Notes: generated by a model not told the origin, from the sequence alone. DNA of 64,000 bases from Candidatus Uhrbacteria bacterium (GCA_018664485.1 JABJOE010000002.1:11896-75895); one strand, 5' to 3'; positions 28,369 through 46,232 are shown, counted from the first letter of the stretch. Numbers and translations: made by a program.

Positions 28369-28520
28369 ATAACAGGAACATCGTATCACAGCCGTATACC
28401 AAAACATGTTGACAGATTCCCAAGATTTCGCTAGTATTCCCCCGTAAATAACCCGCTGTCTGTCTTGGATCGATCGTTGAGCGACGACGTTCTAGGGCTG
28501 TCAGATGAAATCTCAAAGAT

Positions 28521-28796
28521 ATGCTCAAGAAGAACAAAAAGCAGAAGCTGATTGACAAGTTTAAGACTCACGACACGGACACTGGTTCGCCACAAGTCCA
28601 GATCGCTATCCTCACAGAGGAAGTGAAGGAGCTAACAAAGCACCTTCGCGAGCATAAGAAAGATTTTTCTTCCCGCCGTGGTCTTGTCAAAAAAGTTACT
28701 GAACGCCGACGTCTCATGCGATACTTGAAGCGTGAAGACAAGAAGGCTTACGAAAAGCTTGTTGTTGATTTGAAGATCCGACCCCTTTCAGAGTAA
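28521..28796 (+). CDS. rpsO: 30S ribosomal protein S15
   Basis: GSPQVQIAILTEEVKELTKHLREHKKDFSSRRGL is the canonical S15 sequence. Confidence 0.9.
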   Translation: MLKKNKKQKLIDKFKTHDTDTGSPQVQIAILTEEVKELTKHLREHKKDFSSRRGLVKKVTERRRLMRYLKREDKKAYEKLVVDLKIRPLSE

Positions 28797-29094
28797 TTTC
28801 CCCGTTAGCCCGCCTACCCGGTTGGGCTTTCGGCTTTTAAAAAGAAAGTTCCTTTAAAAATAACGCTGCAAAAAAGCACGTTCACATTTTATTAAATAAG
28901 CAACTCACGGCGCATGTTGCAGTATGATCTTCTTGAGGTCATTTGATGCATGTAGCTAACGAAAAAGATGAACGGTGCGGAGACATAGCAGAGCTATATC
29001 GACAAGCTGTGAATCATTTGCAGTTGCGACAGGCGCGAATGAAGCAAGGAGAATTATCTTGCAGCATGCGCCAAAATATAAACAGTTTTCCTTT

Positions 29095-29682
29095 ATGTTA
29101 AAAACACCATCAAGACGCGTAGGAGTATTTATCGACGTGCAGAACATGTACTACAGCGCGCGCAATCTTTTCAATCGAAAAGTAAACTTCCCTAAAATCG
29201 TTTCAGAAACCGTTGGAGATCAGGAGCTGATCCGAGCTATCGCATACACAGTTGCAACAGAGTCTGGTGACGAAAATGCATTCTTTGAAGCTTTGGAAAA
29301 AGCAGGTATCGATGTTATCGCAAAAGATCTTATCGAGTATGACTCCGGTGCCAAGAAGGGTGACTGGGATGTAGGTATTGCAATCGACATCGTACGATCA
29401 CTCGACATGCTAGACGTAGTTGTACTCGCATCGGGTGACGGAGACTTTTCCCCACTTGGCGACTATGTTCGTGGACGAGGCCGAATCTTCCACGTTGTAT
29501 CTTTCCGTGAATCAACTTCTTCAGAGCTACTAGACATTGCTGACGCATACACAAACATGTCAGACGAAAAGAATGTCTTCCTTATGCCTGAAGACAAACG
29601 TAAACGAGCAGCAACATCAACCACAAAAAGAACTCCTTCAAAGCGTCCGGCAGCAAAGCGCGCTCCGGCAAAAAAGAAGTAA
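29095..29682 (+). CDS. NYN-domain (LabA-like PIN-fold) protein with a basic K/R/A-rich tail
   Basis: VGVFIDVQNMYYSARNL... and VVLASGDGDFSPL are NYN signatures. The start is taken as the Met at 29095, inside the ORF that begins at 28975. Confidence 0.7.
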   Translation: MLKTPSRRVGVFIDVQNMYYSARNLFNRKVNFPKIVSETVGDQELIRAIAYTVATESGDENAFFEALEKAGIDVIAKDLIEYDSGAKKGDWDVGIAIDIVRSLDMLDVVVLASGDGDFSPLGDYVRGRGRIFHVVSFRESTSSELLDIADAYTNMSDEKNVFLMPEDKRKRAATSTTKRTPSKRPAAKRAPAKKK

Positions 29683-29908
29683 ACATTACAGCTCCGTGAT
29701 CCACGCGGTCACGGGCCGTGCTGTGTACTACAGCTCAAATTAATTTATCGTCCCGAGACCGTGAGGTGTTGAGTTATAAGACTCAGGATCTTGGGCTTCG
29801 GGGCGAATACCTGCCCTACGTTTAGTACCTATCAACATTACCGTCGCAAGCCACGACAACAAATTGATACTTTATAAAACGCAGCTAGCAGAAATAACAC
29901 AACTACAT

Positions 29909-32116
29909 ATGAACGAACAGAAAACGTTCACCACAATGGTCGGCGACAAAGAGCTGACTATCAAAACAGGTAAGTTTGCGCAGGCCGCAAACGGAACTTG
30001 TATGGTGCAACTCGGTGAGACAGTGGTCTTGGCTACTGCCGTCATGTCAGAGCGACCTCGACCAGGGATTCCTTTCTTCCCACTGATGGTTGACTTCGAA
30101 GAGAAGCTATACGCGGCCGGACGAATTAAAGGATCACGTTTCATTAAGCGTGAAGGTCGTCCAACAGATGAAGCTGTGCTCGTTGCACGATTCATCGATC
30201 GATCACTTCGCCCTCTCTTTAACCAGGAGATGCGAAACGACGTACAGGTTATCATCACAGTTCTCGCATTCGACGGAGAGAACGACGCAGACCTTCTAGG
30301 GCTCATCGGAGCATCTTGCGCATTACACATCAGTGATATCCCTTGGAATGGTCCGATCGGTATCGCTCGAGTGTCAAAGCTTGATGACGAGTGGCTTGTA
30401 AACCCAACATACGCACAGCGAGATAAGGCAGACTTCGACCTCGACGTTGCGGGAACATCAGAGAAGGCGATCATGATTGAGGCTCGTGCAAGCGAAACGC
30501 CAGAGGACGTTATGGCTGAAGCGTTTGAAAAAGCAATGGGATCAATCCAGCCAGTAATCGATCTGATCGAAAAGATCCGAAAGGACGTCGGAAAAGAGAA
30601 GCGCGACATGGTTGTTGTAGACGAGCGTGGAGATGAACTTCGACAGATGGCTAAAGATTATCTTTACCCAATCTTTGAAAAACGATGTATCGAACGACCT
30701 CTTTTCTCAAAGCCACAGATCAACGCGGCTAAAGCTGAACTTAAGGATCAGCTAACAGCTCATCTTACCGAACAGGGAATTGAAGAAGCGGAAATTAAGA
30801 TCGCAGCTGACGTGATTTACAACCTAACGCAGCGTGTTGCGTCTGACCTTATCTTGAAGCAAGGTAAGCGTGTCGACGGTCGTGCCCTTACGGAAATCCG
30901 AGAGCTTACAGGAGAGGTCGGCCTTCTTCCACGAGTTCATGGATCAGGACACTTCAACCGTGGAACAACTCAGGTAATGTCTATCTGTACTCTCGGAGCT
31001 CCGGGTGACGAACAGACTTTAGACGGAATGGAAACGGTCGGACAAAAGCGTTACATGCACCACTACAACTTCCCTCCATACAGTGTTGGTGAAGCGAAGC
31101 CGTTGCGTGGAGCTAGTCGCCGAGACATTGGTCACGGTGCGCTTGCAGAAAAAGCTTTGGACTTCATGATCCCAAGCAAGGAAGACTTCCCATACACAAT
31201 CCGAGTCGTATCAGAGGTACTGGATTCTAACGGATCAAGTTCAATGGCATCAACATGTGCTTCGACTCTCGCGCTGATGGACGCAGGTGTGCCAATCAAG
31301 GCTCCTGTTGCCGGAATCGCAATGGGACTTGCAAGTAGTGGGGACGATTGGAAAGTGATTACCGATCTTCAAGATATCGAAGACGGTGACGGAGGAATGG
31401 ACTTCAAGATCACTGGAACAAAGACAGGTCTTACCGCAATCCAAATGGATACAAAGACGGACGGTATTACCCTTGAGATCATCAAGCAGACTCTGACTCA
31501 GTGGAAGGACGCAAAAGCTACCGTACTTGCAGCTATCGCTGGCGGACTTGAGGAGCCACGCAAGGAGCTCTCAGAGCACGCTCCACGTATCTTGACCATG
31601 ATGATCAACCCAGACAAGATCCGAGACGTTATCGGACCTGGTGGAAAGATGATTAACGAGATCATTGCAGAAACCGGAGTTGATTCAATCGACATTGAGC
31701 AGGACGGGTACGTATTTATCACAGCTCCGAACCAAACAACTGGAGAGGCGGCATTCGCATGGGTAGGTGACCTTACTCGCGAAGTGCAGGCTAACGAAAC
31801 ATTCACAAAATGTTCAGTTGAACGAATCATGGACTTCGGAGCGTTCGTGAATATTCTTCCTGGACGAGACGGTCTCGTTCACATTAGTGAGCTTGCCCCT
31901 TGGCGTGTCGCAAAGGTTGAAGACATCGTCAAAGTTGGAGATGAGGTAAACGTAAAAGTTATCGAAATCGACAGCATGGGACGTGTAAACCTTTCAATGA
32001 AGCAAGCTGAAGGGAACACATACACAGATGAGATGAAAGAAAAGGCCTCAAAGGCACCAGCGCCTCGATCAGGAGGTGCGCCACGTGGAGGCAGTCGTCC
32101 ACCACGTAAGTCATAA
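29909..32116 (+). CDS. pnp: polynucleotide phosphorylase
   Basis: Two RNase PH domains plus KH (IRDVIGPGGKMINEI) and S1 domains; a basic C-terminal tail; 735 aa from the Met at 29909. Confidence 0.95.
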   Translation: MNEQKTFTTMVGDKELTIKTGKFAQAANGTCMVQLGETVVLATAVMSERPRPGIPFFPLMVDFEEKLYAAGRIKGSRFIKREGRPTDEAVLVARFIDRSLRPLFNQEMRNDVQVIITVLAFDGENDADLLGLIGASCALHISDIPWNGPIGIARVSKLDDEWLVNPTYAQRDKADFDLDVAGTSEKAIMIEARASETPEDVMAEAFEKAMGSIQPVIDLIEKIRKDVGKEKRDMVVVDERGDELRQMAKDYLYPIFEKRCIERPLFSKPQINAAKAELKDQLTAHLTEQGIEEAEIKIAADVIYNLTQRVASDLILKQGKRVDGRALTEIRELTGEVGLLPRVHGSGHFNRGTTQVMSICTLGAPGDEQTLDGMETVGQKRYMHHYNFPPYSVGEAKPLRGASRRDIGHGALAEKALDFMIPSKEDFPYTIRVVSEVLDSNGSSSMASTCASTLALMDAGVPIKAPVAGIAMGLASSGDDWKVITDLQDIEDGDGGMDFKITGTKTGLTAIQMDTKTDGITLEIIKQTLTQWKDAKATVLAAIAGGLEEPRKELSEHAPRILTMMINPDKIRDVIGPGGKMINEIIAETGVDSIDIEQDGYVFITAPNQTTGEAAFAWVGDLTREVQANETFTKCSVERIMDFGAFVNILPGRDGLVHISELAPWRVAKVEDIVKVGDEVNVKVIEIDSMGRVNLSMKQAEGNTYTDEMKEKASKAPAPRSGGAPRGGSRPPRKS

Positions 32117-32133
32117 GAGTACTTGAGAGTTAA

Positions 32134-32168
32134 AACAACCTTCGCATATTGCGGAGGTTGTTTTGTTG
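32134..32168 (+). terminator. Rho-independent terminator after pnp
   Basis: 11-bp stem caaccttcgca/tgcggaggttg followed by TTTTGTT. Confidence 0.6.
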
Positions 32169-32363
32169 CCGGATCCTCAGAACACCACCTCGTACAGCCT
32201 ACAAAACTCTATTTATCTTCCGAGTTGAAGATGTGTTTCAGAAATTGGCTGGCATCTTCGTGGGTAACGTTAGTACATCATCCAGAAGGCGCTTGGTAAC
32301 TTTTTGTAGACATATCATCCTGGAAGCTTGTTCGAGGGGGTGTTCTGGGGTTATCATTCTGCC

Positions 32364-33590
32364 ATGAAACGACTCAACATACCTCTATCAAGCACAAGCG
32401 GGCCTTCCAGGCGCGTCATCGGGCGCATAGCCATTTTATGCGCTCTACTCTTCGTCTCGTGGCTTTTTGTGCGTGCCTACATGGTATCCGACACCACAAC
32501 ATGGTTACGGCCCGAATCAACTACACACACACTCCACATTCCAATGCATCCACGCAGCATCGACCAGATTACTGAGAATATTGGAAGCATGTCTTTATTA
32601 GGCGGTGGGGCGTGGAGTTTTGATCAGCTACCCCTATGGTGTGATCGTGCCTGCAGCCTTCATTTAAATAGTGATGGGATAGTCTTCGGCCTCACTATAG
32701 ATAGGTCTTTACTCGACAATGAGCGCTCCGAAGTCCTTTCTACTGGCCTTTTTACGTACGAATCTGAAAACAAGACCCTTATTTATAAAGATGAGAATGA
32801 AGCGTTTCTAAATAGTAAGCCAGTCTCATACCCTTCGTTGCTCGCAATTCTGCCATGGAATGACGCTATCCTCACAGAACATTCCGTAAAAACAAGTTCT
32901 GGGGTACGAATAAACAGCAACGGCATCGTTCTTCACGGCAGGTATGGAATAAGCGAGCCACATCAAGCGATTTTCGCCCAAGACACCTCAACGCTTGCAC
33001 AACTTGCTTTCACTGCCAATGGTGAGCCCTATCCATTAGCTTCGATCATTCTTCAGGGAAAGATAGAAAACTTTTTGGAAGAGATCGTTGACGGAACGAT
33101 ATCTGTAGCACTTGGAGAACAAGACGGTGAGCTAGTCTTCTCTATTCAGTTGCCCGTAGTCATGGACCAACAAGAAGCGGCCGAGCTAAGTCGTGAATTG
33201 ATAAAGCCTCTCAGTCTGTCTACTCTAGAGTGGACAATTCCTGACGGGACAAATGTTGAAGAGATCCGATTTGATGACAGCGATGTCACGGTTGAAACTC
33301 ATTCAGACGGAAATACTTATTACATGGAGGTATTTCATGAGGGGGGTGTCGTGCTACGAATTACTCAAAGCCAAGAGAATTTAACTATCTCAAATAGAGA
33401 AATTTCGCTAAACCAAAGCAATAATTACGTCTCGTCGTGCGCTCGCAATACTCGCGCAATAGTAAGACCGCGTGAACTACTAGACCTCCTTGCGAGCTCA
33501 CAGAGTATTACTGAACAAAGCATGTATCCACTGATCACTTCTTTTACCGAAGTTGCATTCACCGGAAACAAAGCGATTCTTTGCTGGTAA
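32364..33590 (+). CDS. hypothetical membrane-anchored protein
   Basis: N-terminal TM helix IAILCALLFVSWLFVRAYM; no recognisable domain. The ORF starts at 32328. Confidence 0.45.
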   Translation: MKRLNIPLSSTSGPSRRVIGRIAILCALLFVSWLFVRAYMVSDTTTWLRPESTTHTLHIPMHPRSIDQITENIGSMSLLGGGAWSFDQLPLWCDRACSLHLNSDGIVFGLTIDRSLLDNERSEVLSTGLFTYESENKTLIYKDENEAFLNSKPVSYPSLLAILPWNDAILTEHSVKTSSGVRINSNGIVLHGRYGISEPHQAIFAQDTSTLAQLAFTANGEPYPLASIILQGKIENFLEEIVDGTISVALGEQDGELVFSIQLPVVMDQQEAAELSRELIKPLSLSTLEWTIPDGTNVEEIRFDDSDVTVETHSDGNTYYMEVFHEGGVVLRITQSQENLTISNREISLNQSNNYVSSCARNTRAIVRPRELLDLLASSQSITEQSMYPLITSFTEVAFTGNKAILCW

Positions 33591-33599
33591 TTAACAGTC

Positions 33600-33670
33600 T
33601 GTGGATAAAGTACCGATTATCCAAAAGTTATCCACAACAGAACACGCTAAACACACAAATTTTATCCACA
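33600..33670. promoter_or_regulatory. cluster of DnaA boxes (three perfect TTATCCACA/TGTGGATAA plus one 8/9 match) within 71 bp
   Basis: TGTGGATAA at 33600-33608, TTATCCAAA at 33616-33624, TTATCCACA at 33627-33635 and TTATCCACA at 33662-33670; located 40-110 bp upstream of the ncRNA promoter. Confidence 0.6.
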
Positions 33671-33707
33671 AAACGCAAAAAGTCATTAAACACGGGGTTA
33701 TTCGACG

Positions 33708-33736
33708 TTGACAATATGTGTTCAACTGAATACAAT
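33708..33736 (+). promoter_or_regulatory. consensus sigma70-type promoter TTGACA-17 nt-TACAAT
   Basis: TTGACA at 33708-33713 and TACAAT at 33731-33736, with exact 17-nt spacing. Confidence 0.55.
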
Positions 33737-33743
33737 AGTTGCA

Positions 33744-34102
33744 TAGTACCTTCTACAACACCCGTTATCTGAACTCCGTTCAGATAGACAAGGGGAAGTT
33801 TCCCGAAGCCCACTTCTTCGGGGGATAGCTCCACCGCTGTGCTGTGCTTGTTCACTTCTTTGGGGGAAGGTGAATATGAACACGGCAACTCTGATGCCCG
33901 AACATATCAGAAGAGCCACAGGATGGTAGAGCGGTTAGTCCTATCGACCAGCAACTGGTTGACGCCGACAGGTGTCGAGTCTTGTCCATATATACATATG
34001 GCCAGAACCCGACATCTGCAGCGGTGTCCTAGTCCTGGTACGCGTAGGGGCACGACAGTTCCGGGATATTTATAAGCCCGTTGAGCTACTGTGCCCCTTT
34101 TT
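33744..34102 (+). ncRNA. structured non-coding RNA of about 360 nt, candidate RNase P RNA (rnpB)
   Basis: No ORF. The element is bounded by a consensus promoter and a terminator hairpin (ggggcac...gtgcccc followed by TTTTT). It is GC-rich and contains CCAGAACCCGAC, which resembles the universally conserved ACAGAACCCGGC P4 strand, with a complementary TCGGGGG upstream. rnpA is present elsewhere in the window. Confidence 0.4.
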
Positions 34103-34170
34103 AGTTTGCAGATTTTATGTAAACGTTGTATAAAAACGCCACTTTCGTGTACAATTGATCTATTGTATTT

Positions 34171-34551
34171 TTGCTTATGAATGATGCTTTTACTAAAGAA
34201 ATGAAGGAGCGGCTTGAAGCCGACCAGGCACGCCTACAAAAGGACCTTGGTGGTTTTGCGTCTGTTGATGAACAGTCGAAACAAGCCAACTACACAACCA
34301 ACTATCAAGACTTTGGCGATGGTGAGGATGAAAACGCCAATGAGGTTGCCGCCTACAGCAACAACCTTCCGCTTGAAAATGAGTTGGAGAAGGAGCTTCG
34401 AGACATTAACAATGCCTTGAAGCGAATTGAGGACAAAACTTACGGAACATGTAAGTACTGTAAGGTTGAGGTTCATGAGAACCGTCTTCGTGCACGCCCA
34501 ACGGCTGGCTCATGTGTCGCGTGTAAAAAAACACTCACCCAGGAAGTGTAG
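34171..34551 (+). CDS. DksA/TraR-family C4 zinc-finger protein
   Basis: Coiled-coil N-terminus plus a CxxC-17 aa-CxxC motif (CKYCKVEVHENRLRARPTAGSCVACKK). Confidence 0.7.
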   Translation: MLMNDAFTKEMKERLEADQARLQKDLGGFASVDEQSKQANYTTNYQDFGDGEDENANEVAAYSNNLPLENELEKELRDINNALKRIEDKTYGTCKYCKVEVHENRLRARPTAGSCVACKKTLTQEV

Positions 34552-34562
34552 CTACAACAAGC

Positions 34563-35006
34563 GTGAAAAATAGAACCGCACAAGCCTTTACCATCTTGGC
34601 CGGTCTCATAGCACTGCTAGATGCGGCGCTAAAGGCCTATGCCATCAAACGACTCCCGTCCACCGGGAGTCGTGATCGTTTTATCGATTTTATACTTCAC
34701 AAAAATCCAGGAATCGCCTTTGATATCCCGGTACCCTTTTGGATCATCGGCCCACTCACCGTTGCTGTCTGCACATGGTTGGTATGGACCGCCTACAAGC
34801 ACTGGAATACGCAAAAAGAAGTAAGTACCGCAGCAAACATTGTAATCATTGGAGCTCTTGGCAACTTGATAGACCGATTCGTAAACGGATTTACAACAGA
34901 CTACATAATTATATTTTCAAGAAGCGTTATAAACCTCTCTGACGTACTAATAGTCGCCGGAATAATTGCGCTCCTGTGGTACACTAGAGACAGAAAGACG
35001 TCATAA
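34563..35006 (+). CDS. lspA: lipoprotein signal peptidase (signal peptidase II)
   Basis: Four TM helices; motifs NPGIAF, GALGNLIDR and FTTDY. Confidence 0.85.
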   Translation: MKNRTAQAFTILAGLIALLDAALKAYAIKRLPSTGSRDRFIDFILHKNPGIAFDIPVPFWIIGPLTVAVCTWLVWTAYKHWNTQKEVSTAANIVIIGALGNLIDRFVNGFTTDYIIIFSRSVINLSDVLIVAGIIALLWYTRDRKTS

Positions 35007-35045
35007 ATAATAAGACTCCCCGCAACGGCAGTACTAACACTGCAA

Positions 35046-36566
35046 ATGCATATGGGAGCTTCTTTTATTTTTTCCGCAGCGCACGAAGGCCTTTTTAGTA
35101 CCCGCGTATGCGTCGAAGTCGACATTTCAAACGGATTACCGCGGTTCACAATCGTCGGACTTCCAGACACAGCAATTAGTGAGGCTCGCGAACGCGTTCG
35201 TGCAGCTATGAAGAATAGTGGTTTCACTTTTCCGCGGACCCGCGTCACCGTAAACCTAGCGCCAGCATCAATAAAAAAACAGGGACCAATGTACGACCTG
35301 GCAATTGCGCTATCCATCTTGCGAGCAAACGGCCAACTTACAAACACAGACCCCCTAGATAATGTTTTTGTCATAGGAGAACTAGCTCTTAACGGAGCCC
35401 TTCGCCCAGTACGCGGCGCGCTGCTCGCCGCAACGCTTGCAAAAGAACTTGGGATTACAGGAATCATCTTGCCAGCTGAAAATGCCGATGAGGCTGCCCA
35501 GGTAGGGGGCTTAAAAGTCCATCCAGCAACATCGCTTCATGAGCTTGTTTTTAATATAAACCAAGACACACTACCAACACACAAAAAATCACCTCGCAAC
35601 AAAATACCGACAACGTACGATCGTGATTTTCATGAAGTCCGTGGACAAGAACAGGCCAAGCGAGCTTTAACGATAGCGGCAGCCGGGGGTCACAATATAT
35701 TTATGAGTGGGCCGCCAGGGTCTGGAAAAACAATGCTCGCTCGTGCACTGCCATCAATCCTTCCGCCAATGAGCGCGCAGGAATCATTGGAAGTAACTAA
35801 AATACATTCAATCGCTGGCACACTTAAAGCGCGAGAGGGGCTTGTTAGCGCAAGACCGTTCCGTAGCCCACACCACACAAGCTCTTACGTCGCAATTATC
35901 GGCGGAGGGATTTATCCAAGGCCCGGTGAAATCACACTCGCACATCACGGCGTGCTATTCCTAGATGAGTTCTCCGAGTTCGGTCGCAAGGCAATCGAAA
36001 ACCTCAGACAACCCCTTGAGGATGGCGAAGTTAACATATCAAGAGCTTCTGGATCTGCAACCTATCCGACGCAATTCATGCTAGTCGCCGCGTCTAACCC
36101 TTGCCCTTGTGGATTTGCAAACGACCCAACTCACACATGCGAGTGTCGACCAGCACAACTTCAACGTTATAAAGAACGGTGCTCGGGGCCCATTATGGAT
36201 CGGTTTGATCTATTCATCGAAGTCCCTCGAGTGAAGACGAACGACCTCGCACAAACACCCACAGGAACGTCTTCGGTGGAAATGCGTGAACAGGTTTGTG
36301 CAGCTCGATTACTACAACTTGAGCGAAATAAATGCAAAGGCGTGCTCTACAATCAACAGCTTCGAACAAAGCACCTACGCGACATATGTAAACTCGACAA
36401 AGAGGGTGCTGAGTTTTTAAAAAAAGCGACAGACGCATTGCATCTGTCGGCCCGGGCCTTCACTCGAGTATTGAAAGTGTCTCGTACAATTGCGGATCTA
36501 GCAGACGAAAAAAATATCAACGTTGCGCACTTGAGCGAGGCAATCCAATACCGCGCAAGCCTCTGA
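35046..36566 (+). CDS. comM: YifB/ComM-family Mg-chelatase-like AAA+ ATPase
   Basis: N-terminal Lon-like domain, Walker A GPPGSGKTMLARALPSILPP and C-terminal ChlI-like region. Confidence 0.9.
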   Translation: MHMGASFIFSAAHEGLFSTRVCVEVDISNGLPRFTIVGLPDTAISEARERVRAAMKNSGFTFPRTRVTVNLAPASIKKQGPMYDLAIALSILRANGQLTNTDPLDNVFVIGELALNGALRPVRGALLAATLAKELGITGIILPAENADEAAQVGGLKVHPATSLHELVFNINQDTLPTHKKSPRNKIPTTYDRDFHEVRGQEQAKRALTIAAAGGHNIFMSGPPGSGKTMLARALPSILPPMSAQESLEVTKIHSIAGTLKAREGLVSARPFRSPHHTSSYVAIIGGGIYPRPGEITLAHHGVLFLDEFSEFGRKAIENLRQPLEDGEVNISRASGSATYPTQFMLVAASNPCPCGFANDPTHTCECRPAQLQRYKERCSGPIMDRFDLFIEVPRVKTNDLAQTPTGTSSVEMREQVCAARLLQLERNKCKGVLYNQQLRTKHLRDICKLDKEGAEFLKKATDALHLSARAFTRVLKVSRTIADLADEKNINVAHLSEAIQYRASL

Positions 36567-36570
36567 GCTA

Positions 36571-37956
36571 CTAACGAATGTACTCCAAAGGATTCCTGAA
36601 ACTTCCGTTTGAGATCACCTCATAGTGAAGGTGGGTTCCGGTTGATCGCCCTGTCGTTCCACATCGCCCAATAGCCTGGCCCTGCGCCACATACTCTCCG
36701 GCCGACACATAAAGCGAGCTATGGTGACCGTAACGAGTTACGATTCCGTTTCCATGGTTAATCTCAATTGTGTAACCATAACCACCCTTCCAACCAGAAT
36801 ATTGAACATACCCCGCGTCAGACGCGTAGTTATCGTTCGTGTAGTGACAGTCAATATCAAGCCCAGTGTGCGACCAACCATAATACTGTGTGATAACGCG
36901 AAGGTCAGTAGGCCAGACCATTGAACCTGAACCTGTAACAGTAGGTGAGCTGATTGTTGCGCTAGACCCTGTGCTCACAGTTGGTGTAATAATGTTTGAG
37001 ATCGCACTACTCGTTGACCTTGAAACAGCACGAACCTCACCGCCCGGAATAAGCAGCTCGTCTCCGATTGAAAGCGCGTTTGCGTTTGCAAGACCGTTGT
37101 AACTTGTAATCGTTTCCTGATCTACGTCATACGACTGCGAGATACTTGCAATCGTGTCTCCGGATTCCACCTCGTGATACACACCGTCAACTGGTAGAAT
37201 CGTAAGACTGTCGCCGGGTTGCAGCACAGTACTCACGCTTAGGCTGTTAGCCCACAAAATTGTATTTAGAGATAAGTCGAATTTACTTGCGATCGTCGAG
37301 AGGGTGTCGCCGCCCGCAACAGCATAGGTTTCAATCCCGGTTCGATCAGCAGATGGTGCCGCCTCTGCGACCGCGGTTGCGGCATCTGACTCTTGTACAC
37401 CAACCAAAGACGTTTCAGACAAAGCCGTGCTCGAGGAATCATCAAGTGAACCAATAAAATCTACTCCTCGGGTGAAAGACGAAAGAGAACCTTGCTCGCG
37501 ATAGCTAGCATGACCAATTTGTACCGCAACTAACTGATCGGATGCGTACTCTTCAATCAACTCATCTTGCACTGCAACGAGTGAGAACAATAAGCTCTTC
37601 TGTCCAAAGGTTTCCGCTCGAACATCATCTGTCTGTATGTTTGAAAACACAGTTACCAAAACCAAAGCGGCCACAACAATATGAATAACGTAACGGTTTG
37701 CAACGAGTACCATCACCTTGTTCTTGGCAGGCCGATACATCCGAGACAGCTGTTTACGAACGATGTAAAGGAGGTGATAAACGGGTACGAGTAGCATCAA
37801 AAAAACACGTCCCAAGGCTCGCAGCGGTTTAGCGGCGAGATTAAGAACGCGCAAAGCGTGAGGTTTTAGCCAAACAAGGAGGCGAACCGCTCGCAGTGAT
37901 ACGTGTACGAAAAATTGTTTAAGTTTCTCTTGTATACGATTTGGATTATATCCCAA
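36571..37956 (-). CDS. membrane-anchored M23 peptidase with two LysM domains
   Basis: LysM repeats (YAVAGGDTLSTIASKF...; YHEVESGDTIASISQSY...) and a C-terminal M23 catalytic core (GLDIDC...HLHYEV). Confidence 0.9.
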   Translation of the reverse strand: MGYNPNRIQEKLKQFFVHVSLRAVRLLVWLKPHALRVLNLAAKPLRALGRVFLMLLVPVYHLLYIVRKQLSRMYRPAKNKVMVLVANRYVIHIVVAALVLVTVFSNIQTDDVRAETFGQKSLLFSLVAVQDELIEEYASDQLVAVQIGHASYREQGSLSSFTRGVDFIGSLDDSSSTALSETSLVGVQESDAATAVAEAAPSADRTGIETYAVAGGDTLSTIASKFDLSLNTILWANSLSVSTVLQPGDSLTILPVDGVYHEVESGDTIASISQSYDVDQETITSYNGLANANALSIGDELLIPGGEVRAVSRSTSSAISNIITPTVSTGSSATISSPTVTGSGSMVWPTDLRVITQYYGWSHTGLDIDCHYTNDNYASDAGYVQYSGWKGGYGYTIEINHGNGIVTRYGHHSSLYVSAGEYVAQGQAIGRCGTTGRSTGTHLHYEVISNGSFRNPLEYIR

Positions 37957-37988
37957 TTGCAGCTAAGAGAGTAGCGTTTTTTTGGCAT

Positions 37989-38026
37989 TTTGTCAATCGT
38001 GAGCTAAGGGCGATTATATTGACAAA
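37989..38026. promoter_or_regulatory. inverted repeat TTTGTCAAT-N20-ATTGACAAA in the divergent promoter region of the M23 peptidase and H+-PPase genes
   Basis: Perfect 9-bp arms at 37989-37997 and 38018-38026. Confidence 0.4.
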
Positions 38027-38100
38027 AAGGCCCTTGATCCGTATCATAACCGCGTCTTTAATAGAAATGCCAGCAAATAGCCGGCATCTCAAAAAATAAT

Positions 38101-40098
38101 GTGTCTATGGACGTTTTAACACTCTCACTTGTTGCCTCAGGAGCAGCTATCATCTATACACTCTTCCTGATTTCATCCATTCTCAAGATGCCAGCTGGCG
38201 AAGGGAAGATGAAAGGAATCGCGCTTGCGATTCAAGAGGGGGCAAATGCCTACCTCGCACGACAGTACCGCGTGATCGCCATTATTGGTGCCGTGGTTTT
38301 TGTACTTCTAGGCCTATTTCTAACTTGGACAACCGCCGCAGGATTCCTCGTTGGTGCCGTTTTATCTGGTTTGACTGGATACATCGGAATGATGGTGTCC
38401 GTACGTGCAAACGTACGTACTGCCGAAGCCGCTAAAGGTGGAATGGCAAAAGCGCTTAACGTTGCTGTTAAGGGTGGTGCTGTAACTGGAATGTTCGTTG
38501 TAGCCCTTGGGCTCCTCGGAGTTGCAGGCTTCTACCTAGTGACAAAGGACATCAATGCTCTTATCGGACTTGGGTTCGGTGGATCGCTTATTTCTGTGTT
38601 CGCTCGACTTGGTGGTGGAATTTTTACAAAGGCTGCTGACGTTGGTGCAGACCTTGTTGGAAAGGTTGAAGCTGGAATTCCAGAAGATGACCCACGCAAC
38701 CCAGCTGTAATCGCAGACAACGTTGGAGATAACGTTGGAGACTGTGCAGGAATGGCTGCCGACCTTTACGAGACATATGCTGTATCAATCGTTGCAGCGA
38801 TGCTTCTAGGACTCCTCACATTTGGAACAATCGAAGAAATTATTACATTCCCTCTGGCTGTCGGAGCTGTCGGAATCATTGCAAGTATTATCGGACTTTT
38901 CTTCATCAAGCTTGGACCAAGCAAGAAGATCATGCCCGCTCTATATAAAGGGCTGATCGTTGCCGGTGGACTCTCCGCTATCGCTTTTTACCCTTTGACC
39001 AACTGGATCTTGGGTGACATTCAAGGAATCGACTCAATGGCTATCTACTACTCATTGCTCGTCGGGCTCGCTGTCACAGCACTTATGGTTGTGATCACTG
39101 AGTACTACACTTCAACTGATTACAAGCCGGTTCAAAATCTTGCAGCAGCATCACAGACAGGACATGGAACAAACGTTATTGCAGGACTCGCACTTTCAAT
39201 GCGATCAACCGCTCTTCCGGTGATCGTGATCGTTGCAGGACTCCTCGTATCTTACGGTCTAGCTGACATCTACGGTGCGGCAATGGCGGTTACATCAATG
39301 CTTTCACTTGCTGGAATCATTGTGACTCTCGACGCATACGGACCAATTACCGACAACGCTGGAGGAATTGCAGAGATGTCTGAGCTCGATAGCGAGGTGC
39401 GCGAAGTAACTGATGCACTAGACGCAGTTGGAAACACAACAAAGGCTGTTACAAAGGGATACGCAATCGCATCTGCCGGACTCGCAGCTACTGTGCTCTT
39501 CGCTGGATACACAGAAGAGCTATCACGACTCGGACTTGAATACGCTTTCTCTCTTTCAAACCCATACGTTGTAGCAGGGCTTTTGATCGGTGGACTTCTA
39601 CCTTTCATCTTTGGAGCTATGGCAATGGAAGCGGTTGGAAAAGCTGCTGGTAAAGTCGTTGAGGAGGTACGACGTCAGTTCCGAGAGATCAAAGGAATTA
39701 TGGACGGATCTGGTAAGCCTGAATACGGAAAGTGTGTAGACATCGTTACACAGTCAGCACTAAACCAGATGATCGTTCCGGCTCTTATTCCAGTAGTTGT
39801 ACCGATTCTTGTCGGACTATTGCTTGGACCTGAGGCGCTTGGAGGACTTCTAATGGGAACTATTGTGACTGGACTCTTCCTTGCAATCTCAATGACCACA
39901 GGTGGTGGAGCTTGGGACAATGCAAAGAAGTACATTGAAATGGGGAACTACGGTGGAAAGAAATCGCTAGCGCACGAAGCTGCGATTACTGGAGACACCG
40001 TTGGTGATCCGTACAAAGACACAGCAGGACCCGCAATCAACCCAATGATCAAGATCATCAACATTGTTGCACTCCTAATCATTGCTCTAATCGTCTAG
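38101..40098 (+). CDS. hppA: membrane-bound proton/sodium-translocating pyrophosphatase
   Basis: [19 protein letters not shown] and [21 protein letters not shown] are canonical H+-PPase motifs; 16 TM helices; 665 aa. Confidence 0.95.
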
Positions 40099-40119
40099 AG
40101 CTACTTGGAAGTTTTTAAA

Positions 40120-40155
40120 ACAAAACGCCCGGTTCATCCGGGTGTTTTTGTTTTG
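40120..40155. terminator. bidirectional Rho-independent terminator between hppA and the 122-aa gene
   Basis: gcccgg-ttcat-ccgggt hairpin flanked by aaaacaaaa and tttttgtttt. Confidence 0.6.
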
Positions 40156-40157
40156 AT

Positions 40158-40526
40158 CTAGGCTAAGGAATCGAGCAACAACAGTCTATCAGCCTCCTGT
40201 GTTGTAATGACTTTCGTTCTCTGCAATGTCTTAATGAGCTCAATGGCTTTCGTGTCACCTTTTCGAAGAAGAGAAATCAAATCACCCTTTAACTCTGTTA
40301 GTTTTCGATCGATATAGTCACGCAGATCGTGATTAAGCTTGCCGAAACGACCATTAACGGATTCATCGAGCGCGCTCAACTTTAAGTCCAGCTCATCTTT
40401 CGTAACCATGTTCTCTTGAAGAAATTCAATAAGCTCGCCCAGCGTCTCATCTGTCTTTCGCTGCGAATTAGCGACCTTTTCAATCGCTGTAAGTAACTGT
40501 GCGTTTGTAATTTTTTTCTGTGTCAT
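40158..40526 (-). CDS. hypothetical coiled-coil protein (122 aa)
   Basis: Intact ORF with typical local GC content; no recognisable domain. Confidence 0.4.
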   Translation of the reverse strand: MTQKKITNAQLLTAIEKVANSQRKTDETLGELIEFLQENMVTKDELDLKLSALDESVNGRFGKLNHDLRDYIDRKLTELKGDLISLLRKGDTKAIELIKTLQRTKVITTQEADRLLLLDSLA

Positions 40527-40574
40527 ATAAATACGGTCATAAAAATAAACCGTCCTTCTCTTTCTATCTTACCA

Positions 40575-40621
40575 CGCTACAAAAGCAGAGCGCCCGCCGC
40601 GACACGATGGTCGGGCGGGCA
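40575..40621. repeat. R0: copy of the GC-rich imperfect-palindrome hairpin gcgcccgccgcgacacgatggtcgggcgggc (terminator of cassette gene A)
   Basis: Near-identical to 41058-41097; the stem gcccgccg/cgggcgggc carries a one-base bulge. Confidence 0.6.
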
Positions 40622-40650
40622 GACGGTGGCCTGAATCTTCGCGGCGGTGA

Positions 40651-40968
40651 TCAGCCTCGTGCCGGGGCAGGTGTCTTCTCCAAGAAGGTGGCGACACCGG
40701 GCCTCGTCTTGGCAGCTTCGGTAAGGACGTAAACGAGTCGCTTCAAGTGCGTCTCACGCCCCTGAATCTCTCCAAGGTTCGCACTCACCCGTGCGACAAC
40801 CAGGCTGTCCGAGCACCCGGGGTCCTTGAGCATCAGCTCGATGCGAGCAACTTCAACGGCGACTGGATCACGCCCCTTGGTCACACGCATGTAGGTGTCT
40901 TGGAGTTCGCCGATCACATAGTGTTGCAATATGGCGCCAATGTTGCGGAAAAAATCAAACCTCATCAC
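40651..40968 (-). CDS. hypothetical 105-aa protein, paralog A of a tandem GC-rich cassette
   Basis: About 60% GC. Homologous to the 41113..41430 product, with shared residues such as QH.V.G...DT, DP.C.D.L, LG and RPG.A.F....PA.AR; no known domain. Confidence 0.55.
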   Translation of the reverse strand: MMRFDFFRNIGAILQHYVIGELQDTYMRVTKGRDPVAVEVARIELMLKDPGCSDSLVVARVSANLGEIQGRETHLKRLVYVLTEAAKTRPGVATFLEKTPAPARG

Positions 40969-40998
40969 GAAAGCCTTTGTGGTAGGGCAGGACGTCGT

Positions 40999-41097
40999 TC
41001 ATCCCGGTCTATGTAGACACCTCAACATACTCCAAAAGTACGTTTACGTCAAGATGCAAAGCGCCCGCCGCGACACGATGGTCGGGCGGGCAGACTG
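40999..41097. repeat. R1: full cassette-junction repeat (promoter-like TTGACG-17 nt-TATGTT, 5' UTR, then the terminator hairpin of the upstream cassette)
   Basis: 40999-41068 matches 41470-41537 (cccgtctatgtagacacctcaac.tactccaaaag.acg...tcaa.atgcaa.gcgcccgc). 41058-41097 matches 40575-40621. Confidence 0.6.
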
Positions 41098-41112
41098 TAG
41101 GTCGAGCTTCGT

Positions 41113-41430
41113 TTAGTCTCGAGCGAGAGCCGGTTCTTCGGCCACGAATACTGCGAGGCCAGGTCGATCTTGGGCAGCGCTATGAAGCACGGCAACGAGC
41201 TGAAGAATATCCGGTTCAGAACGCAGAAAGTCTCCAAGGATGTTGTTGACCTTCATAATAATCAGCCAGTCCGGACACTCCGGGTCGCCGACCATCGCCC
41301 TGATGCGGTTCAGCGAAGCCGCCAACGGATGAACACCGTATATAAGCCGGTCCCACGTATCACTGACGGCACCTAGGACAGAGTGTTGAAACACAGCGCT
41401 CACACTTGTACGAATCAAAGCAGAGTTCAT
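41113..41430 (-). CDS. hypothetical 105-aa protein, paralog B of a tandem GC-rich cassette
   Basis: Same length and about 35% amino-acid identity to paralog A; its own promoter-like repeat lies upstream and the GC hairpin downstream. Confidence 0.55.
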   Translation of the reverse strand: MNSALIRTSVSAVFQHSVLGAVSDTWDRLIYGVHPLAASLNRIRAMVGDPECPDWLIIMKVNNILGDFLRSEPDILQLVAVLHSAAQDRPGLAVFVAEEPALARD

Positions 41431-41469
41431 TTCAGGTCCTTGTTGGGGTGCAGAGCTACTATAGCTCCC

Positions 41470-41537
41470 GTCTATGTAGACACCTCAACCTACTCCAAAA
41501 AGACGCCCTCGTCAATATGCAATGCGCCCGCGTGATT
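41470..41537. repeat. R2: promoter-like head of the cassette repeat upstream of paralog B
   Basis: The minus strand reads ATTGACG-17 nt-TAGGTT; it matches 40999-41068. Confidence 0.55.
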
Positions 41538-41709
41538 GACAAAAACCCCAGCAAACTCTACACTCCGCGCGAAGAAAGAACTAGAGCTGACTTATTTGAG
41601 GTCAGTTTTAGGCACAGGGAAAAATGCCGAGGAGGCGTACCATTAGTACGTTGACGAGTCATTTAACTCTGTAACAACAAAATGATCCAAATAAGTAAGT
41701 TACATTTTT

Positions 41710-42996
41710 ATGACATACAAGCTAGAAACTGAAGGAAAGAAAGCTACGTTTACAATCACCGTCCCACAGGCAGACGTTGAAGCTGCAATGAAGCGCGCTG
41801 CAGAACGCATTTCACAAACAACAAAGATCGATGGCTTTCGCCCAGGTAAGGCAAACTACGAAGCTATCAAGAAAAATGTAGGAGAGATGAAGCTCTTGGA
41901 AGAGTGCACCGAAGAGCTTATCCGAAACGCATTTGTAAAAGCGTCTTTGAAGGAAAATCTAGAGACTGTTGGTCAGCCATACTTCGACATGATCAAGATG
42001 GCCCCAGGAAACGACATGGTTTTTACAGCAGAAGTTGCTCTCATGCCAAAAATTACAAAGCTCGCTGACTACGAAAAGCTCTCAGTAAAAAAAGAAAGTA
42101 CTGAGCCCTCAAAAGAACTCATCGAGCAGGCTCGCGCGGACCTTGCGCGAATGCAAACAAAAGAAGTTCGCCGGCCATCTGGAGAAAAACTTCAAAAAGG
42201 AGACAAGGCTGTCATCAATCTTACAATGAAAAAGGAAGGTGTCGTGCTTGAAGGTGGCGAAGGTCGAGACCATGGTGTATATACCGGCGAAGGTCACTAC
42301 ATCAAGGGCTTGATTGAAAAAATTATCGACATGAAAGAAGGTGACAAGCAGTCTTTCACTCTCGACTTTCCAGATGACCACTACCAGAAGCACCTAGCAG
42401 GTCAGCCAATTGATTTCGAAGTTGAAGTGAAAGAAATCTTTGAACTACAGGCGCCAAAAATGGATGAAGCTTTCGCAAAGACGGTTGGATGCAAAGATCT
42501 TGCTGACTTGGAAGGTAAACTCAAAGAGAATCTAGAAAAAGAAAATATTGTTCAAGAATCTCGACGACAAGAGCAGGAAGTTCTAAAGCTCCTCGCATCA
42601 AAAACAAAGTTCGAAGAAATTTCCGACCTCCTCATCAACCAGGAAATTACAAAGATGATTGAGGAGCTGAAACAGAACATCAGCAACCGCGGACTGCAGT
42701 TTGAGGAATATCTAAAATCCATCAACAAAACGGTTGCCGACCTTAAGCTCGATTTAACACCTGACGCACTTACACGCGTTCAGATCGCTCTTATCCTCGC
42801 AGAGGTAACAAAGAAGGAAGAGATCGTTGTTGAAGGGAAGGAGCTAGATGAAGAAATTGACCGGATGGCAGAGCAATACAAAGACAACGAGGATGCAAAG
42901 AAGCAAATCTTCTCTCCTCGCTACCGAGAATACGTGCAACAACAACTATCAAACCAGAAAGTTGTTACGTTGCTCAAAGGAAAGATGGTTAAGTAG
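41710..42996 (+). CDS. tig: trigger factor
   Basis: N-terminal ribosome-binding domain (TFTITVPQADVEAAMKRA), central FKBP-like PPIase, C-terminal arms; 428 aa. Confidence 0.9.
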   Translation: MTYKLETEGKKATFTITVPQADVEAAMKRAAERISQTTKIDGFRPGKANYEAIKKNVGEMKLLEECTEELIRNAFVKASLKENLETVGQPYFDMIKMAPGNDMVFTAEVALMPKITKLADYEKLSVKKESTEPSKELIEQARADLARMQTKEVRRPSGEKLQKGDKAVINLTMKKEGVVLEGGEGRDHGVYTGEGHYIKGLIEKIIDMKEGDKQSFTLDFPDDHYQKHLAGQPIDFEVEVKEIFELQAPKMDEAFAKTVGCKDLADLEGKLKENLEKENIVQESRRQEQEVLKLLASKTKFEEISDLLINQEITKMIEELKQNISNRGLQFEEYLKSINKTVADLKLDLTPDALTRVQIALILAEVTKKEEIVVEGKELDEEIDRMAEQYKDNEDAKKQIFSPRYREYVQQQLSNQKVVTLLKGKMVK

Positions 42997-43011
42997 AAGA
43001 CTTAATCCGGG

Positions 43012-43040
43012 AAAACGGGCCGAAAGGCCTTTTTTCTTTT
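43012..43040 (+). terminator. Rho-independent terminator after tig
   Basis: gggcc-gaaa-ggcct hairpin followed by TTTTTCTTTT. Confidence 0.6.
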
Positions 43041-43117
43041 GGTATTGAAGTAATCGCTTAACAGTAGTAAAAAGGGATTAGAAATCTAACAAAGGGGGGA
43101 GGCCCTTCTTTTATTTT

Positions 43118-44131
43118 ATGGATGTCATTGCAACAATTCGAAAAATGCCATACTACACAGAGCGAAATGCGCGCATGATCGATGCGGGCGTGGATGCGTT
43201 TCGCGTAAAGTGCTCGCATGTAAGTATCCCCGAAATTTCATCAGCTCTTCAGGCGGCTCGTCAGCAGATAGATGCCAGTGGTCGACAGGTAAAACTCTTG
43301 GCAGACCTTCCGGAGGCAAAGCTTCGCCTTGGAGACTTTCCTCAAGAACAGATGGAGGTTGAAAAAGATGTTGATTTTAGATTTTTGCACGGCCCTGAGT
43401 CCTCCGACCCAAGCGCCTACATACCGTTCACTACGCCCGCGCTCGCACAGCATCTTAAAATTGGGGATCGTTTCTATATTGGAGACGGTCATCTCGAGCT
43501 TGAAGTGACCGACATTCACAGTCCAAATGAATTCATCGCCCGCAGCGTCTCAAACGGAACGCTCACCCGGCGAGCAAGCATCACTGTTCCGAGCCTGATG
43601 GATCAGCTCGATCACATCGTTCCTGAAATCGATGACATTATCGCAGAACTTCCAAAGAGTAAGCCGGACCTAGTGTCCTTTTCGTTCGTTCGCAACCAGG
43701 CAATGCTACACACGCTCATGGACAAGCTCCTTGCCGTCACAACACCGCAGTGGCGGCCGATGGTTATCGCTAAAATAGAATCTGCGGAAGGTGTAAAGAA
43801 TGTTGATGAGATTTTAGAGGTATGCCATGGCATAATGATTGCGCGCGGAGACCTGGCGCTCAACATTCCGTTCGAGCAACTCGGCCTTATTCAAAAAAAG
43901 CTCGTTGCAAAAGCTCGTCAGGCTGGAAAGTATGTCATTGTAGCAACCGGTGCACTTGAGTCAATGCTATATACCTCAATGCCATCACGAGCGGGAATCT
44001 TAGACGTAACGAATAGCTGCCTTGATGGTGCGTCTGCAATAATGCTTTGTCCTGAAACCGCTCACAATAAGAATCCTGAGCGTGTCGTGCAAGTTGCGCA
44101 CAAAATAATTGCTGCGGTTGAAAACCCCTAA
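43118..44131 (+). CDS. pyruvate kinase-like protein (barrel/A-domain only, lacking the C-terminal domain)
   Basis: KIESAEGVKNVDEILEVCHGIMIARGDLALNIPFEQ...VIVATGALESM...PSRAGILDVTNSCLDGASAIMLCPETA aligns with the PK active-site barrel. At 337 aa it is too short for a full PK. Confidence 0.65.
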   Translation: MDVIATIRKMPYYTERNARMIDAGVDAFRVKCSHVSIPEISSALQAARQQIDASGRQVKLLADLPEAKLRLGDFPQEQMEVEKDVDFRFLHGPESSDPSAYIPFTTPALAQHLKIGDRFYIGDGHLELEVTDIHSPNEFIARSVSNGTLTRRASITVPSLMDQLDHIVPEIDDIIAELPKSKPDLVSFSFVRNQAMLHTLMDKLLAVTTPQWRPMVIAKIESAEGVKNVDEILEVCHGIMIARGDLALNIPFEQLGLIQKKLVAKARQAGKYVIVATGALESMLYTSMPSRAGILDVTNSCLDGASAIMLCPETAHNKNPERVVQVAHKIIAAVENP

Positions 44132-44164
44132 GGTATACTGGTATCAAATACGTAAATTCAAACT

Positions 44165-44935
44165 ATGCTTACAACAAAAAAAATGGCCGAACACATAGCT
44201 CGTTTGGCTGGCGCAGAACTTACAAAGAAATCAACAAGCCTAACCCAAGGAGACGTTTCATTTAAAAAGCATGGCGAAACCGTTACTCGCATTGATCGCG
44301 AGATAAACACTTTTATTATCAACGAGCTTGAAGCTCATTTTCCAGACCACGACATTATTACCGAAGAGGCCGACGCTATCGACGGCAACGGAGAGCATAA
44401 GCGTTGGTTTGTAGACCCGATTGACGGAACAAATAACTTCGTACGCCAAATCCCACTTTACTGTGTATCAATTGGGTATGAGCAAGACCGTGTGCTGACG
44501 GTCGGGGCAATCTTTGACCCCGTCCACCAAGTTCTTTACAGCGGAGAACGTGGGAAGGGGGCCTTCGCGAACGACAAGGCGCTACACGTCACAAAACAAA
44601 CCGCTCTGGATAACGCAATGATCTTTGAGGGTCATGGGTACCCTCCAGAACACCAGGCACAGCACAGCAAGGTCGTTTCGCGTATCAATTCGTCGTCTTC
44701 AAACCGCAGAGAGATCGGAACTGCAGCACTTATGCTCGCATACCTCGCCCAGGGACGTGCAGACGGAATGATCCTCACAGGAACCAAGCCTTGGGACTGT
44801 GCTGCCGGAGCCGTTCTCGTACGTGAGGCAGGAGGAAGGGTTACAAACTTCAAAGGAGACGACTGGACACCCTCAGATAACATGATAGTTGCATCAAATG
44901 GCTTGATTCACGATCAGCTTCTTGAGCTTCTATGA
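44165..44935 (+). CDS. inositol monophosphatase family protein (SuhB-like)
   Basis: EEADAIDG...WFVDPIDGTNNFV and the WDCAAG motif. Confidence 0.85.
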   Translation: MLTTKKMAEHIARLAGAELTKKSTSLTQGDVSFKKHGETVTRIDREINTFIINELEAHFPDHDIITEEADAIDGNGEHKRWFVDPIDGTNNFVRQIPLYCVSIGYEQDRVLTVGAIFDPVHQVLYSGERGKGAFANDKALHVTKQTALDNAMIFEGHGYPPEHQAQHSKVVSRINSSSSNRREIGTAALMLAYLAQGRADGMILTGTKPWDCAAGAVLVREAGGRVTNFKGDDWTPSDNMIVASNGLIHDQLLELL

Positions 44936-45186
44936 TCCTCACGGTCCAAGTAAAGCCTGGGGCGAGCAAAACGAAGGTTGTAAGCTGGCGAGATGAAGGA
45001 ACTGTCGTAATCGCCCTTGCAGCACCCCCTGTAGACGGAAAAGCGAACCGTGCACTGATCGTATTCCTGTCAAAACAACTAAGAGTAGCAAAAAGCCTAA
45101 TAACAATAAAACGCGGCCAGTCAGGTCGCGTAAAACATATTGAACTTCCAGACGGCACAAGTCTTGATCACTTAACCGGATCGTGA
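44932..45186 (+). CDS. DUF167 (YggU) family protein
   Basis: VKPGASKTKV...PPVDGKANRALIVFLSK is the DUF167 signature. The start overlaps the preceding stop by 4 nt. Confidence 0.8.
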   Translation: MILTVQVKPGASKTKVVSWRDEGTVVIALAAPPVDGKANRALIVFLSKQLRVAKSLITIKRGQSGRVKHIELPDGTSLDHLTGS

Positions 45187-45742: not shown

Positions 45743-45750
45743 ACAAACAA

Positions 45751-45775
45751 AGTGGGCGGGTAAATCCCGTCCACT
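45751..45775 (-). terminator. intergenic hairpin (attenuator-like) between rpmH and rnpA
   Basis: agtgggcggg-taaat-cccgtccact, a 10-bp stem with one mismatch. Confidence 0.4.
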
Positions 45776-45780
45776 TTATC

Positions 45781-46188: not shown

Positions 46189-46232
46189 CTGGGATACTAT
46201 GCAAACCGTCGTTATACGTTGTGATTTTTTCT

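Follow-up and report, generated by a model that had tools for sequence, protein, structure and literature searches.

An array of four DnaA boxes was found upstream of a strong promoter in the window, by which we mean the whole 64-kb stretch of Candidatus Uhrbacteria DNA that was analyzed. The promoter precedes a structured non-coding RNA. We favor, with moderate confidence, the explanation that the boxes form a conserved array through which the state of the replication initiator is coupled to this promoter. The promoter would then be controlled by DnaA, and titration of DnaA would be a by-product. DnaA-dependent control of the RNA was one of several possibilities raised in the original prediction, and it was the best supported by our results. 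Boxes 1, 3, and 4 and their spacing relative to the promoter were kept in eight lineages, boxes were present at the equivalent promoters of distant bacteria of the Candidate Phyla Radiation (CPR), and a second box promoter with a common spacer motif was found in the window. We infer DnaA binding, the regulation and its direction, and the role of the spacer motif at the RNA promoter from sequence.

The positions and orientations of the boxes were determined. Box 1 (33600-33608, minus strand) was a perfect TTATCCACA, which reads TGTGGATAA on the plus strand, and it was opposite in orientation to boxes 2-4. Box 2 (33617-33625, plus strand) was TTATCCAAA, with one mismatch, and lay 2 bp ahead of box 3 (33628-33636, plus strand), a perfect TTATCCACA. 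Box 4 (33662-33670, plus strand) was also a perfect TTATCCACA, and was centered at about -77 relative to the predicted transcription start. The four boxes spanned 71 bp. The original count of three perfect boxes and one near-perfect box was thus borne out, with the coordinates of boxes 2 and 3 each one base off. The boxes had been placed about 40-110 bp upstream of the promoter, and we measured 37 bp from the end of box 4 and 108 bp from the start of box 1 to the -35 element. The distance to dnaA, given earlier as about 13 kb, was 12.6 kb with the likely dnaA start at 46233. Several consensus boxes in an intergenic position outside oriC are the mark of an extra-origin DnaA-box cluster, and this arrangement was found at 33.6 kb.

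The density of boxes was compared with expectation. Five perfect boxes were present in the whole window, compared with about 0.5 expected, and the two outside the array were at 14764 and 14808. When one mismatch was allowed, four boxes were observed per 75 bp, compared with a maximum of two in 300 Markov-simulated windows. The array at 33.6 kb is not due to chance. It had been described as the densest array in the window, which held for boxes with at most one mismatch. At up to two mismatches, the description failed, and the dnaA-dnaN spacer (47643-47851) was denser, with nine boxes. We regard the boxes as putative DnaA-binding sites. Domain IV of the DnaA protein carried the canonical PRQ...GGRDHTT motif and was nearest to B. 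subtilis DnaA. Since domain IV was canonical, canonical box recognition would be expected.

The textbook promoter described earlier was found at 33708-33736 on the plus strand. It was of the sigma-70 type, TTGACA-17-TACAAT, and matched the consensus at 11 of 12 positions. Its spacer contained the core GTGTTCAA (33718-33725, plus strand), a candidate operator that was kept in relatives. This 8-mer occurred twice in 64 kb, both times in the spacer of a DnaA-box promoter. The core may represent a weak DnaA box in reverse orientation, or another factor may bind there. Only 5-6 of the nine positions matched a reverse DnaA box, and the conserved T4 was missing, which leaves room for a different binding protein. 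Three further identities were considered for GTGTTCAA, namely a LexA (Cheo) box, a palindrome, and an alternative -35 element, and none of them fitted.

The other occurrence of the motif was in a second DnaA-box promoter on the minus strand (14674-14816). This promoter was TTGACG-17-TATAAT (14702-14674), with GTGTTCAA at 14689-14682 and perfect minus-strand boxes at 14808-14816 and 14764-14772, which were 114 and 70 bp before the -35 element. The spacers of the two promoters had an exact 15-mer, AATATGTGTTCAACT, in common, and its position relative to the hexamers was offset by 3 nt between them. This shifted register suggested an operator rather than a contact of RNA polymerase. An ATG located 8 nt past the -10 element opened the ORF 13754-14665, and because of this short distance its mRNA is probably leaderless. 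The encoded protein was widely conserved in Patescibacteria and matched no Pfam family. The orthologous promoters of L104, L105, and L106 had one or two perfect boxes each. The GTGTTCAA spacer was kept in two of these three, L104 and L105, and was present in two copies in L104. Between the box promoter and a tRNA-Arg gene, about 1 kb (14830-15876) had no ORF of 80 aa or more. It contained a 35-nt direct repeat, with copies at 15538 and 15802 that were 89% identical, and a 15-nt inverted repeat without mismatches at 15740 and 15863. A NUDIX gene occupied the equivalent position in L104 and L105.

The gene order around the array was established. From the left, rpsO, a NYN-domain gene, pnp, and a hypothetical gene were followed by the boxes, the promoter, and the 360-nt RNA, and then by a dksA/traR-type gene, lspA, comM, an M23 peptidase gene, and an H+-pyrophosphatase gene. 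Farther right were tig, pyk, suhB, rnpA (minus strand), dnaA, and dnaN. The upstream hypothetical gene (32481-33590, plus strand) was lineage-specific, and its stop codon was 10 nt before box 1. The dksA/traR-type zinc-finger gene (34177-34551, plus strand) served as the syntenic anchor of the module, and the RNA was always beside this DksA-type factor gene. The dksA-like gene had its own promoter, TTGTAT-18-TACAAT (34126-34155, plus strand), which followed the RNA terminator and was conserved in relatives. The hexamer regions of this promoter formed an imperfect inverted repeat, TTGTATA...TGTACAA. Identical copies of the dksA-like protein were encoded on a JGI contig of 986 kb and on several contigs from ENA, Logan, and JGI, all with 100% identical intergenic DNA. 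The chromosome of this Candidatus Uhrbacteria (CPR) organism was about 1 Mb in size.

Relatives were reached via the upstream hypothetical protein and via dksA-like homologues (82-55% identity), and all relatives so reached had a gap of 600-720 nt at the same place. In seven species-level relatives, the dksA-like protein was 59-82% identical. The neighboring hypothetical protein was only 45-51% identical at the amino acid level, compared with 85% nucleotide identity of the intergenic region. The box cluster was present at the orthologous position, with its register kept, in eight lineages. This comparison had been set as a refuting check in the original prediction, and its outcome spoke strongly for a function. 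Mean pairwise identity over seven lineages was 0.97 for box 1, 1.00 for box 3, and 0.97 for box 4, and box 2 was the least conserved at 0.74. For the promoter, the values were 1.00 (-35 element), 0.95 (-10 element), and 0.82 (spacer), compared with 0.47 for the 76 columns between the boxes and the -35 element. This pattern indicated that the array is under strong purifying selection.

The spacing of the boxes was similarly maintained. The start-to-start distance from box 1 to box 3 was 28 bp in seven of seven relatives and also in L107, the eighth lineage. The distance from box 3 to box 4 was 33-36 bp. Box 4 was 46 bp from the -35 element in six of the seven relatives and 48 bp from it in L103 and L107. 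Box 1, which was present in L107 too, lay 108-111 bp before the -35 element. Box 2 was degenerate in three lineages. In two of these, L014 and L103, a reverse box located 2 bp after box 1 took its place, and this replacement retained a symmetric 9+2+9+8+9 layout. In L010, L013, and L102, the terminator of the upstream gene lay between box 4 and the -35 element, so that part of the constant spacing could reflect the terminator. The boxes stood in a conserved register with the core promoter downstream, the arrangement of a DnaA-regulated promoter, and not with the stop codon upstream.

The product of the promoter was investigated by structure prediction and covariation. The RNA (33743-34103, plus strand, about 360 nt) had a predicted 5' end, and an intrinsic terminator at its 3' end. 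The long stem of the terminator (34047-34097, plus strand) was formed by GGGGCACGACAG...CUGUGCCCC and followed by the U-tract UUUUU (34098-34102). The fold of 33744-34106 had an energy of -148 kcal/mol and z = -5.4 compared with shuffles. Seven species-level lineages were alignable throughout the RNA, and the RNAalifold consensus of this alignment had 12 helices with 107 pairs, in which 94% of the cells were paired. Changes on both sides were observed in 42 of the 107 pairs, compared with 13.6 ± 2.9 in column shuffles. When the partners of the same pairs were slid as a control, only 7-12 compensatory pairs were obtained. Covariance-model matches were found in eight lineages, and L107 was detected by a 5'-domain model with 47 bits. 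The invariant loops CCCAC and UGGGGGA (33809-33816 and 33860-33868) were complementary, and these hairpin loops could form a kissing-loop pseudoknot.

Known RNA families were searched. Rfam 15, applied to the whole window at the gathering threshold, gave four tRNAs only and left the RNA unmatched. On 33400-34400 at E ≤ 10, only chance-level microRNA and lncRNA matches were obtained, and nine related loci gave tRNAs only. No tmRNA was found by ARAGORN. The thresholds of Rfam families including RNase P, tmRNA, SRP, 6S, OLE, ROOL, GOLLD, HEARO, raiA, and T-box were not reached. An RNase P RNA is needed by the genome since rnpA is present in the window, and the RNA at 33743-34103 gave no RNase P score. 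A likeness to RNase P RNA (GGGGAAGUUUCCCG, CUCCACC, CCAGAACCCGAC) was dropped since the segments were covarying local hairpins with no covariance-model score. The likenesses to SRP helix 8 and to a T-box were dropped for the same reason. No conserved ORF was found within the RNA region of the relatives. The small ORF MNTATLMPEHIRRATGW (33877-33930), which follows a Shine-Dalgarno-like sequence, was rejected; its start was not conserved, it was missing in L098, L102, and L103, and its substitutions fitted the RNA helices instead. When metagenomes were scanned with the RNA pattern, the only matches were from the same species, apart from two chance matches in GC-rich coding DNA. From the fold, the covariation, the absence of a conserved ORF, and the absence of an Rfam match, we concluded that the product is a structured RNA, about 330-400 nt in length and not described before, whose gene includes both a promoter and a terminator. 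The earlier proposal that the promoter drives a non-coding RNA was therefore supported.

Distant loci were collected by a PNPase-anchored scan of GTDB genomes, with PNPase identity of at most 55% among the matches listed. At least seven distant loci with a dksA-like gene nearby were present among these matches. Seven were analyzed, labeled as Buchananbacteria, Magasanikbacteria, Falkowbacteria, Komeilibacteria, 'Patescibacteria group' (two), and one mislabeled Gammaproteobacteria. All seven had a TTGAC(A/C)-17-TATA(C/A)T promoter upstream of the same dksA-like gene. In addition, all seven had a non-coding, well-folding stretch of 310-430 nt with a terminator between the promoter and this gene. 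The promoter regions (7 × 340 = 2,380 bp) contained 17 boxes with at most one mismatch, compared with about 1.3 expected, as computed from the loci themselves. A reverse box was located 100-125 bp before the -35 element in all seven. A 28-bp reverse/forward box pair was repeated in Falkowbacteria L020. In L038, L039, and L044, a one-mismatch reverse box TGTTGATAA was on the predicted start, 34 nt past the start of the -35 element, and L039 had a further perfect box at +62.

The RNA itself was searched for in the distant lineages using nhmmer and two covariance models, and it was not detected except for a marginal match in L017 (12-13 bits), at the expected place and strand. Beyond the Uhrbacteria group, homology of the RNA is thus at most putative, and the deep conservation is one of position and synteny. 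The dnaA gene was near the module in L017 only, and none was found within the flanks examined in the other six of the seven loci. This indicated that the association with the promoter, rather than closeness to the origin, is the conserved property.

Several other features were observed at the distant loci. A 22-nt palindrome, TTGTATACAnnnGTnTATACAA, flanked the DnaA boxes in L015, L017, and L020, at 100-250 nt upstream of the RNA-type promoter, with two copies each in L017 and L020. A dimeric regulator probably uses this palindrome as its operator. A Fur-like gene was inserted between the RNA region and dksA in L020. Four genomes, L015 (OZ246400.1), L018, L019, and L075, were labeled 'uncultured Gammaproteobacteria', and their PNPases were the closest to that of the window among the matches listed. 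L015 had a 931-kb chromosome, on which a dksA-like gene was located downstream of pnp at a distance of about 4 kb. The labels of these four are probably taxonomic errors for CPR genomes.

Based on the conserved arrangement, we propose a mechanism in which DnaA would bind boxes 1, 3, and 4, predicted to be of high affinity, at fixed positions of about -139, -111, and -77 from the predicted start. DnaA bound upstream would control initiation at TTGACA-17-TACAAT, and the controlled promoter would yield an independent, terminator-ended, structured RNA of about 360 nt. The upstream-anchored DnaA or a partner protein might occupy GTGTTCAA in the spacer. The array would also sequester some DnaA, since its boxes would be of high affinity and it is 14 kb from oriC. 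Repression by accumulated DnaA-ATP seemed somewhat likelier than activation, on the grounds of the near-consensus promoter, the operator-like element, and the start-site box in some lineages. Activation of the RNA promoter, by analogy with sda, would be the less likely direction. The high-affinity boxes were 73-143 bp upstream of the start, outside the RNA polymerase footprint, and a direct mechanism was thus not obvious from position alone.

A rival explanation is that the array mainly regulates DnaA itself, as an oriC-proximal titration or nucleotide-state site of the type of DBC[yydA-yycS], datA, or DARS, which would retain or remodel DnaA and thereby set the timing of initiation, and that the RNA promoter is incidental. 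We considered this unlikely. It would account for three perfect boxes and one near-perfect box within 71 bp, about 14 kb from the origin of a genome of about 986 kb, an arrangement that is common in Firmicutes and Actinobacteria (PMC3245932). Box 1 was opposed to boxes 2-4, like DARS boxes I and II (PMC6868365), and the 2-bp distance between boxes 2 and 3 would favor an oligomer. However, the promoter register was fixed in eight lineages, and such a register goes beyond pure titration, for which it is unneeded. The module was also not near dnaA in most of the distant relatives. In addition, the opposed boxes were 8 bp apart, compared with 5 bp in DARS, and conservation was lowest at the middle box, whereas DARS boxes I and II are both essential. 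The earlier suggestion of a datA/DARS-like locus was therefore retained in part, as a possible secondary role, with the non-matching DARS spacing and the low conservation of the middle box as points against it.

It is very unlikely that a factor different from DnaA recognizes the TTATCCACA repeats, or that their role lies at the 3' end of the upstream gene, where they might form a roadblock ahead of the terminator. The boxes started only 10 nt after the upstream stop codon, and they preceded the terminator hairpin of the upstream gene in L010, L013, and L102. Moreover, GTGTTCAA, and the 22-nt palindrome elsewhere, suggested that other factors act at these promoters. However, the repeats had the exact DnaA-box consensus, the same family was present in the dnaA promoter region and in the dnaA-dnaN origin, and domain IV of DnaA was canonical. 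The register of the boxes with the downstream promoter instead of the upstream stop codon argued against a role at the 3' end.

The remaining reading, in which the cluster is part of the origin as a split or bipartite oriC or a second origin, drew on the flat raw GC skew and on the fact that perfect boxes were nowhere denser in the window, and it was scarcely credible given an unwinding module in the dnaA-dnaN spacer, a skew switch elsewhere, and flanking DNA made up of a promoter and a covarying RNA gene. The basal unwinding pattern consists of a box followed within 16 bp by at least three DnaA-trios (NAN, consensus 3'-GAT-5') and an AT-rich region (PMC8287927). This pattern was found at 47834-47876 (plus strand), where the tandem boxes TTATCCCAA and CTGTCCACA were followed by GGCC and TTA TTA CTA CTA CTG. 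On the other strand, these gave at least five NAN trinucleotides, two of them exactly 3'-GAT-5', next to a GC cluster of 4 bp, and AT-rich DNA followed the trios (47834-47900). The same spacer held the nine boxes with up to two mismatches, and three further boxes were upstream of dnaA (46105, 46133, and 46180). At 33.6 kb, DnaA-trios were not found after any of the four boxes in either orientation, nor was an AT-rich unwinding element. The raw GC skew was flat from 22 to 52 kb because of about 20 kb of plus-strand genes left of dnaA, by which a simple skew-based origin call would be misled. Nearly all genes in 28500-47600 were on the plus strand, head-on to the leftward replication fork. When the skew was fitted with coding strand and replichore as factors, the best position of the switch was 48-51 kb. 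The residual sum of squares was 0.23 there and 0.45 for a switch at 34 kb. From the unwinding module, the skew fit, and the absence of trios at 33.6 kb, the idea of a split origin was rejected. The box/trio unwinding module allowed us to place the origin with confidence in the dnaA-dnaN spacer and not at the 33.6-kb array.

DnaA is established in Bacillus and E. coli as a transcription factor that acts from extra-origin clusters. To our knowledge, nothing is known about replication control in the CPR, whose members are not culturable alone, and no reports on DnaA boxes in Patescibacteria turned up in our literature search. The kind of element that we propose, a DnaA-controlled promoter, is therefore already known, and its RNA target, the depth of its conservation in the CPR, and the spacer motif are new. 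The two promoters in 64 kb with common boxes and a common spacer operator constitute a predicted DnaA regulon in these bacteria. The RNA of about 360 nt was more conserved than the neighboring proteins and is apparently the most conserved output of this regulon. We also considered that the RNA represents a new large structured class that is wired to the initiator and acts back on replication or the cell cycle, which we regard as decidedly doubtful. If this were true, feedback could be exerted, for example, by binding of the RNA to DnaA, RNA polymerase, or another component of replication or growth. It would amount to an RNA-based, replication-coupled control circuit in bacteria with minimal genomes, maybe ancestral to a whole CPR class. 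A large structured RNA linked to the initiator would lend itself well to biochemical study.

The array was compared with known systems. B. subtilis has six extra-origin DnaA-box clusters (DBCs), namely yqeG-sda, ywlC-ywlB, yydA-yycS, ywcI-vpr, gcp-ydiF, and thdF-jag, which are mostly near oriC, and several of them control the adjacent gene (PMC3245932). DnaA activates sda and represses dnaA, ywlC, and yydA, and the clusters together restrain initiation (PMC3245932). Like the present array, the DBCs consist of intergenic consensus boxes outside oriC that are adjacent to promoters and mostly proximal to oriC. The DnaA type and the box/trio unwinding module at the origin were also similar to those of B. 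subtilis. In contrast, the product here was a large structured non-coding RNA instead of protein genes. Different Bacillus species have different genes downstream of their clusters (PMC3245932), whereas the architecture here, one reverse and two forward boxes at 28 bp and 33-36 bp with 46-48 bp to the -35 element, was conserved across many species.

The core of DARS contains three boxes, of which I and II are opposed, 5 bp apart, and both essential (PMC6868365). Like E. coli DARS1 and DARS2, the array was a compact cluster with three boxes, the first of which was opposed to the next two. It had the opposite orientation alone in common with the DARS arrangement of boxes I and II. The corresponding gap was 8 bp when measured from box 1 to box 2 and 19 bp when measured to box 3, the middle box was dispensable in relatives, and a fourth box and a tightly linked promoter were present. 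The datA locus of E. coli is about 1 kb in size, contains an IHF site that is essential, and functions by promoting hydrolysis of DnaA-ATP. Similar to datA, the array was a non-origin cluster of putative high-affinity boxes proximal to oriC that could lower the level of free or active DnaA. However, it was only 71 bp long and was locked to a promoter. The identity of 0.47 between the boxes argues against a conserved site for an architectural protein there.

In the promoters of E. coli dnaA and nrdAB and of B. subtilis dnaA, which are controlled by DnaA, high-affinity boxes are near a sigma-70 promoter, as they appear to be here. In these promoters and at the RNA promoter, strong boxes may cooperate with weaker sites inside the promoter to give control that depends on the nucleotide state. 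In contrast to those promoters, all strong boxes here were more than 35 bp upstream of the -35 element. The RNA resembled OLE, ROOL, GOLLD, HEARO, and raiA in being large, multi-helix, covarying, and lineage-restricted, with its own promoter and terminator. However, it matched none of them in sequence or structure, and among the RNAs compared, it alone had a conserved array of DnaA boxes at its promoter.
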